A stretch of 357 bases of DNA from Escherichia coli (lineage in GTDB: Bacteria > Pseudomonadota > Gammaproteobacteria > Enterobacterales > Enterobacteriaceae): the NCBI RefSeq assembly GCF_003334405.1, contig NZ_QOWM01000069.1; one strand, given 5' to 3'. The notes beneath the pieces are model-generated. The model searched no databases, was not told where the DNA came from, and was given only the letters and a program-made list of their open reading frames with translations. Of this stretch, positions 184 through 224 are shown in pieces; the stretch's first letter is position 1; each line of letters opens with the position of its first letter. The position numbers and the translations under genes were made by a program.

Positions 184-190
184 ATAGCCG

Positions 191-194
191 CCTT
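191..194 (-). promoter_or_regulatory. Shine-Dalgarno (AAGG) for ldr
   Basis: Minus-strand AAGG (complement of 191-194) lies 7 nt upstream of the ldr ATG at complement 181-183; the in-frame upstream ATG at complement 208-210 has no comparable SD. Confidence 0.5.
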
Positions 195-196
195 GT

Positions 197-224
197 TGTA
201 ATGACAACATTTTGCGGCTATTCT
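197..224 (+). promoter_or_regulatory. Candidate sigma70 promoter for rdl
   Basis: TTGTAA (197-202), a 16-nt spacer, then TATTCT (219-224). Each hexamer matches consensus at 4 of 6 positions, and the predicted start falls near 231, where the Rdl-like sequence begins. Alternative register: ATGACA (201-206) as the -35. This is a motif-level call only. Confidence 0.3.

Follow-up and report, generated by a model that had tools for sequence, protein, structure and literature searches.

The analysed stretch of DNA (357 nt at its full length, hereafter the window) comprises an E. coli long-direct-repeat (LDR) type I toxin–antitoxin locus of the ldrA/B/C type. Matches to the window were found in every complete E. 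coli genome searched (5,426 of 5,426), at 24,161 places with a median of four per genome, and the annotation under these matches read 'type I toxin-antitoxin system toxin Ldr family protein'. The Ldr/Rdl loci of E. coli K-12, ldrA/B/C/D with rdlA/B/C/D, go back to Kawano et al. 2002, as cited in PMC4147584 and PMC7472228. The toxicity of the Ldr peptides and their repression by Rdl are described in the literature (PMC4147584, PMC7472228, PMC12643268), with ldrD being the copy that reviews describe as shown to be toxic and repressed by RdlD (PMC4147584). The window was 98.9–99.4% identical to the ldrA/rdlA, ldrB/rdlB and ldrC/rdlC repeats of MG1655, three tandem repeats situated between kdsA and chaA. 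It differed from each of them by 1–3 mismatches and 0–2 gaps, being identical to none of the three, whereas copies in other K-12-derived strains and in wild E. coli strains matched it at 100% identity. Recombination or gene conversion between the tandem repeats could account for this combination of non-identity to the MG1655 repeats and identity elsewhere.

The features of the locus are collected in Table 1. The ldr gene encodes the 35-aa peptide MTLAQFAMIFWHDLAAPILAGIITAAIVSWWRNRK. A Pfam scan of the 44-aa ORF that begins upstream of the annotated ldr start detected the Ldr_toxin family (PF13940, E=4.2e-24), with model positions 1–35 of 35 aligned to residues 10–44 and the nine additional N-terminal residues falling outside the model. 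In the NCBIfam scan of the 35- and 44-aa peptides, no family was matched. The antitoxin gene was identified by the match to rdlD (RF01813) at positions 231–296 of the plus strand, with 91.4 bits against a gathering score of 50 (E=2e-20), and the promoter/terminator scan located the rdl terminator at 272–291 of the same strand. Rdl overlaps the ldr 5' UTR and not the ldr Shine–Dalgarno (SD) sequence or start codon, lying 37 nt upstream of the SD (194..188), and the ATG at 210 is located 21 nt outside the Rdl-complementary region. The T tract of the ldr terminator lies beyond the window edge, and a T run is visible in the homologues. An Rfam match to bxd_2 and an antisense match to rdlD, both in the window, were dismissed as chance-level. 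On the Rfam, Pfam and LDR-repeat criteria, the locus is an ordinary, already-known member of the Ldr/Rdl group and shows no difference of substance from the K-12 ldrA/B/C loci, the 44-codon reading being an alternative gene call on the same DNA.

Table 1. Features of the ldr/rdl locus in the window (positions in nt; nt 1 is the first letter of the window).
Feature	Position	Strand	Description
ldr intrinsic terminator hairpin	1..26	-	alignment columns 365-373/384-392; single-sequence and consensus folds
3' UTR element	33..67	-	can pair with 210..174; single-sequence MFE, z = -7.1
ldr CDS	76..183	-	35 aa and stop, LdrA/LdrC sequence
candidate leader ORF, TTG start	180..242	-	20 codons; stop (ATGA) overlaps the ldr start codon
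putative 27-nt extension MLSLQQGGY	184..210	-	non-coding by homologue comparison
predicted SD-sequestering stem-loop	184..221	-	outer stem AUAGCCGC (221..214) : GCGGCUAU (191..184); RNAalifold consensus
ldr Shine–Dalgarno AAGGCGG	188..194	-	AGGCGG core invariant in 40/40 homologues; columns 194-199 with zero entropy
putative rdl promoter	196..224	+	TTGTAA (196-201), 17 nt, TATTCT (219-224), 6 nt to the Rdl 5' end; by eye
upstream in-frame ATG	208..210	-	A and T, variable internal-loop positions; G, invariant first base of the inner hairpin stem
ldr 5' UTR hairpin	216..250	-	loop and 5' arm complementary to the Rdl 5' end; single-sequence and consensus folds
rdl antisense RNA (antitoxin)	231..296	+	Rfam RF01813, full length
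candidate leader ORF, 5'-proximal	263..340	-	25 codons; SD GGTGAGG (351..345)

The upstream ATG and its conservation among Ldr loci

The original prediction concerned an ATG at complement 210..208, said to be in frame with ldr and to add MLSLQQGGY to the N-terminus of the toxin. The sequence and the ORF read-out agreed that it shares the frame of the ldr ATG (183..181), and the ORF 210..76, composed of this extension and the 35-aa Ldr (44 aa in total), was confirmed. The minus strand reads ...GCCGCAAA ATG TTG TCA TTA CAA CAA GGC GGC TAT ATG ACG..., and the nearest in-frame stop codon upstream is found 32 codons before the ldr ATG. Of 5000 shuffles of the 174-nt 5' UTR that preserved the dinucleotides, 29.8% contained an in-frame ATG ahead of the first in-frame stop, so the upstream ATG is unremarkable and does not go beyond chance expectation.

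The claim that the upstream ATG lacks an SD also held. The best anti-SD duplex in the preceding 22 nt reached only -0.7 kcal/mol, compared with an average of -4.1 kcal/mol for shuffled 22-mers. The downstream ATG is indeed preceded by an SD, AAGGCGG (194..188), with an anti-SD duplex of -6.9 kcal/mol. The sequence in front of the ATG at 210 is A-rich (CAAAAUG). The codon had a predicted probability of being unpaired of only 0.15, and the value over positions -15 to +12 was 0.20. Neither of the two marks of a functional start, i.e., a ribosome-binding signal and an accessible start codon, was found for this ATG.

The comparative check named along with the prediction, loss of the upstream ATG in homologous loci, came out against the extended toxin. 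A scan of one genome per species yielded 30 loci from Escherichia, Kluyvera, Pseudocitrobacter, Citrobacter, Klebsiella and Salmonella, the addition of tandem copies raised the set to 45 Ldr genes, and 40 distinct full-length mRNA regions were aligned. The upstream ATG was present in only eight of the 40 aligned loci, and all eight are of the ldrA/B/C type of Escherichia: the window itself, the three K-12 genes ldrA/B/C, one locus each from E. coli E69 and Escherichia sp. E1V33, and two from E. whittamii. In the remaining 32, the corresponding columns 173–175 contained CGG (12 loci), CAG (10), ACG (6), CCG (3) or GCG (1). The column entropies over the 40 homologues were 1.09 bits for the A, 1.99 bits for the T and 0 bits for the G. 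The T column, with its near-maximum value, was the most variable one between the Rdl-target hairpin and the ldr start and stood amid a run of zero-entropy columns, the A and T of the upstream ATG being the only freely varying positions of the conserved block.

The frame between the two starts was not preserved either. The distance from the upstream-ATG position to the ldr ATG was 26, 27, 28, 29, 30 or 31 nt across the homologues, with indels in columns 189–193 changing the spacing by non-multiples of three. This position was out of frame with ldr in 26 of the 40 loci, among them the two ATG-bearing E. whittamii copies (31 nt), and in K. oxytoca an in-frame TAA was found four codons before ldr. 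In one Escherichia sp. E1V33 copy, the ATG stayed in frame despite a 3-nt insertion, which corresponds to a 45-aa reading. The ldr CDS aligned without gaps in the 40 homologues, and its codon periodicity (entropy by codon position of 0.62/0.28/0.84) began at the annotated ATG.

The nearest LdrA relatives outside Escherichia, those of Kluyvera and Pseudocitrobacter (83% protein identity), carry CCG and ACG at the position in question, which indicates that the ATG arose secondarily within Escherichia, in the ldrA/B/C lineage. Pseudocitrobacter possesses a different in-frame ATG, located at codon -6 in the hairpin loop as a result of the change of CATT to CATG. The independent acquisition of this triplet suggests that in-frame ATGs arise easily in the stretch. 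Two ldr copies were unusual in other respects. In the ldr copy of Pseudocitrobacter vendiensis, an internal TAG at codon 31 replaces the conserved Trp codon (…IVGW*RNRK), and this copy is probably a pseudogene. A 503-nt, low-coverage contig assigned to 'Bacillus sp.' (NZ_JABWSY010000055.1) carries a locus of the ldrD type with 97% identity to E. coli LdrD, and it almost certainly represents enterobacterial contamination of the Bacillus assembly.

Within E. coli, the corresponding triplet of the MG1655 ldrD gene is ACG, and one extra nucleotide lies between it and the start codon. A census of the 5,426 complete genomes was based on 40–41-nt queries in which each 28-nt seed word spanned the diagnostic base. 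The ATG-type 40-mer was detected at 11,714 places in 5,418 genomes, ACG in the ATG-type context at two places, and the ldrD-type 41-mer (ACG and the extra C) at 12,031 places in 5,374 genomes, the three queries leaving only ~414 of the 24,161 places unaccounted for. About half of the E. coli Ldr loci are devoid of the ATG, and in the ldrA/B/C type it is essentially fixed. This fixation is the only argument for a function of the ATG and a weak one, since the whole 28-mer around the ATG is just as conserved in E. coli. Selection acting on a start codon would likewise yield such a pattern.

Predicted RNA structures and a candidate promoter at the ldr start

The region of ldr initiation was predicted to fold into a stem-loop sequestering the SD. 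In the RNAalifold consensus of the 40 sequences, an 8-bp outer stem buries the SD core and extends to the base immediately before the ldr AUG. The stem encloses an inner hairpin with the consensus GUUG[U/C]-CAUU-[A/G]CAAC, which in the window occupies 209..194 as UGUUGU-CAUU-ACAACA. The pairing of the stem-loop was compatible with 98.5% of the alignment cells, in comparison with 24–58% in the control with slid 3' partners, these structures being thermodynamic models in which most of the base pairs are invariant and uninformative either way on pairing. The closing pair of the inner hairpin alternated between U-A and C-G with both sides changed in 14 sequences, and the local fold of the stem-loop was calculated at -18.0 kcal/mol. 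In this model, the G of the upstream ATG forms the first pair of the inner hairpin, and the A and T are internal-loop positions. The T of the ldrA/B/C type is predicted to pair with the next A, lengthening the inner hairpin to 6 bp, and replacement of the U of the upstream AUG by C, A or G resulted in a loss of 0.9–1.7 kcal/mol locally and 1.3–1.4 kcal/mol in the full-length ensemble.

In the single-sequence fold of the whole mRNA (z = -7.1), the 3' UTR element was predicted to form a nearly continuous 29-bp helix with the initiation region (67..33 : 210..174), reaching from the upstream AUG over the inner hairpin, the SD and the ldr AUG to the third codon. Among the 40 homologues from six genera, 88.5% of the cells were compatible with this helix, mostly through one-sided G-C/G-U and U-A/U-G changes. 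The pairs at the A and U of the upstream AUG held in only 15 and 12 of the 40 sequences, respectively, with columns 174/351 showing the pair types U-A, U-G, C-G and G-U in those 12. RNAalifold favoured the local hairpin over the long-range helix, and the upstream AUG was mostly base-paired in either predicted conformation (P unpaired 0.15). RNAalifold also paired the adjoining 3' UTR sequence UGCGCC with GGCGCA at the 5' end of the mRNA (346..341), beside the SD of the first ORF. For the hairpin at 216..250, double changes between U-A and C-G were observed in eight sequences (columns 141/158), and the folding models suggest that it is likely the Rdl recognition hairpin.

On the opposite strand, the promoter scan of the window revealed no sigma-70 site above the threshold. 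A site noticed by eye, TTGTAA and TATTCT separated by 17 nt, had 8 of 12 matches and remained below the threshold; judging from its sequence, it is probably the rdl promoter. The upstream ATG falls in the spacer of this putative promoter. The putative -35 hexamer is the reverse complement of the ldr mRNA inner hairpin, and so one DNA stretch would serve both strands.

Leader ORFs and the hok/sok-like model

Ldr/Rdl regulation has been described as hok/sok-like, with Rdl pairing with the 5' UTR and not with the SD, and a leader ORF named ldrX has been proposed to couple its translation to that of ldr in a model that awaits confirmation (PMC4147584, PMC8167048, PMC8594479). The ldrD-rdlD duplex is cut by RNase III (PMC7373196). 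In the window, the ORFs 340..263 and 242..180 are the candidates for the published ldrX.

The SD and start of the 5'-proximal ORF (340..263) were present in 40 of 40 homologues, the start codon being ATG or, in three sequences, GTG. A conserved peptide was rejected for this ORF, as its length varied between 11 and 88 codons across the homologues and its frame shifted with indels. It could correspond to the published ldrX, or its conservation could reflect RNA structure.

The TTG ORF (242..180) is preceded by an SD-like GGGGG (-8.6 kcal/mol), its TTG sits in the Rdl-target hairpin, and in the window it passes through the upstream ATG in another frame. Over the 40 homologues, it was in frame with ldr in 20 (giving 55–56 aa), ended with ATGA in seven, stopped 17 nt inside ldr in two and was absent from 11, with all three frames represented. 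The in-frame arrangement of 55–56 aa was seen in ldrD-type, Citrobacter and some other loci; in Klebsiella, TCG or TCA replaces the TTG, accompanied by a compensating change in the hairpin in most copies. That the ORF is open in every TTG-bearing homologue was considered as a sign of a translated leader and judged weak, as two of the three frames are open across this conserved block in most sequences. If the TTG ORF is translated, the act of translation, rather than the peptide, could matter. The upstream ATG would play no necessary part under hok/sok-like leader-ORF models.

The ldr locus resembles hok/sok/mok of plasmid R1 and its chromosomal homologues in the long 5' UTR, in the antisense RNA targeting an upstream hairpin instead of the toxin SD, in the leader ORF proposed as ldrX (PMC4147584, PMC8167048, PMC8594479), in the sequestration of the toxin SD and in a 3' element which, as predicted for ldr, is able to fold back onto the initiation region. 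The two systems differ in their toxins, which are unrelated, the Ldr family being grouped with Fst, and in the leader ORF, the frame of which is unconserved in ldr and the TTG of which is missing in Klebsiella. For ldr, 3' processing and translational coupling would belong to a hok-like model that, according to the reviews, awaits confirmation. The Rfam sok model (RF01794) aligned to the ldr mRNA strand at 333..181 with 29.3 bits (E=6e-5), which is below its gathering score of 59, and the alignment terminated exactly at the ldr AUG. The authors of T1TAdb report an Ldr locus classed as Hok/Sok on the basis of RNA features (PMC8594479). The sequence context described here is useful for testing the still-unconfirmed hok-like model of Ldr regulation.

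Origin of the upstream ATG and the extended gene calls

The ATG at 210..208 is, with high probability, a fortuitous lineage-specific triplet not conserved as a start, the product of the gene being the 35-aa Ldr translated from the ATG at 183..181. The 35-aa product was already favoured in the original prediction, and it now gains support from the Ldr_toxin match to residues 10–44, the codon periodicity starting at the annotated ATG and the invariant SD. The triplet would consist of two freely varying nucleotides and an invariant G opening the conserved 5–6-bp hairpin, and this hairpin, within the 8-bp stem AUAGCCGC:GCGGCUAU, would mask the ldr SD as far as the start codon. The initiation block may alternatively pair with the conserved 3' UTR element when the mRNA is full-length, and on the opposite strand it would overlap the probable rdl promoter. 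The T of the ldrA/B/C type is predicted to pair with an A in both RNA conformations, adding about 1.3–1.7 kcal/mol, and its fixation in E. coli may reflect either this structural gain or hitch-hiking in a young, concertedly evolving repeat family. From these models we infer translational repression by the hairpin and by pairing with the 3' UTR, with initiation at the ATG at 210 being rare or absent. The strong conservation around the ATG thus points to non-coding explanations: the stretch appears to be conserved without protein coding, as an SD-sequestering hairpin, as the fold-back partner of the 3' UTR and probably as the rdl promoter.

A refinement of the chance-triplet explanation, compatible with it, is that the T of the ATG has been kept by a role in RNA structure or in the rdl promoter and not neutrally, providing tighter repression in the ldrA/B/C type. 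The T would give the inner hairpin its sixth base pair and lengthen the fold-back helix by two pairs, and the cost of its replacement given above, the paired state of columns 174/351 in 12 of 40 sequences and its location in the spacer of the putative rdl promoter are all in line with such a role. However, 28 of the 40 homologues are unpaired at the T position and have kept the system, the energy gain is small, and fixation in a recently diverged, gene-converting repeat family needs no selection. Maintenance of the T is regarded as a tentative possibility, on the doubtful side.

Clearly less probable, and unlikely on the present evidence, is that the ATG at 210 acts as a genuine minor start specific to the Escherichia ldrA/B/C type, giving a 44-aa isoform beside the 35-aa form. 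It is in frame with no stop in between, is fixed in the E. coli ldrA/B/C-type copies, has an A-rich upstream context and stays in frame in the one Escherichia sp. E1V33 copy with the 3-nt insertion (45 aa), and initiation without an SD occurs in E. coli. Against this stand the missing SD and the mostly base-paired state of the codon, the absence of the ATG from ldrD and from all other genera and its out-of-frame position in E. whittamii. GenBank contains gene calls of 44, 45 and 55 aa, but these annotations are predictions and not evidence, and the extension variants among them (L to F, G to C and an added K) reveal no obvious constraint. Low-level SD-less initiation at this ATG in E. coli is rated as similarly improbable or slightly more so. 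The most specific form of the idea, in which the AUG at 210..208 would be used at a low level in the ldrA/B/C loci only, for example after mRNA remodelling, and the short polar tail of the 44-aa isoform would alter membrane insertion or toxicity, is the least probable of these. If true, a type I toxin gene would have a second product restricted to one lineage.

The reading in which translation truly begins at the ATG at 210 and the 35-aa annotation is an error has nothing but longest-ORF logic in its favour and can be dismissed, being opposed by all the evidence for the 35-aa product, by ldrD, which has no equivalent ATG, by the non-Escherichia homologues and by the toxicity of the 35-aa LdrD and LdrA ORFs upon expression reported in reviews (PMC4147584; PMC7472228).

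The 44-aa reading is itself already known, as an alternative call of the gene found in public databases. The databases contain 44-aa Ldr clusters with 119, 57 and 222 member sequences as well as 45-aa and 55-aa 'Ldr family' proteins from E. coli, and the database proteins include the non-synonymous extension variants MFSLQQGGY, MLSLQQGCY and MLSLQQKGGY. The comparative evidence indicates that these hundreds of 44-, 45- and 55-aa entries represent over-extended gene calls and that the conserved product is the 35-aa peptide. The main significance of the chance-triplet explanation is one of annotation hygiene.

A search of the literature for initiation-site or ribosome-profiling data on ldrA/B/C/D found no direct mapping of the start, and one ribosome-profiling analysis leaves out ldrA and ldrC as near-identical copies (PMC5318159). 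The closest precedent is the E. coli type I toxin DinQ, which has nested in-frame candidate starts (49, 42, 38 and 27 aa) and a structured, translationally inert primary transcript (PMC3567139). For DinQ, experiments settled on the shortest product, of 27 aa and starting with GTG (PMC3567139), whereas for ldrA/B/C it is comparative evidence alone that favours the shortest product as well.
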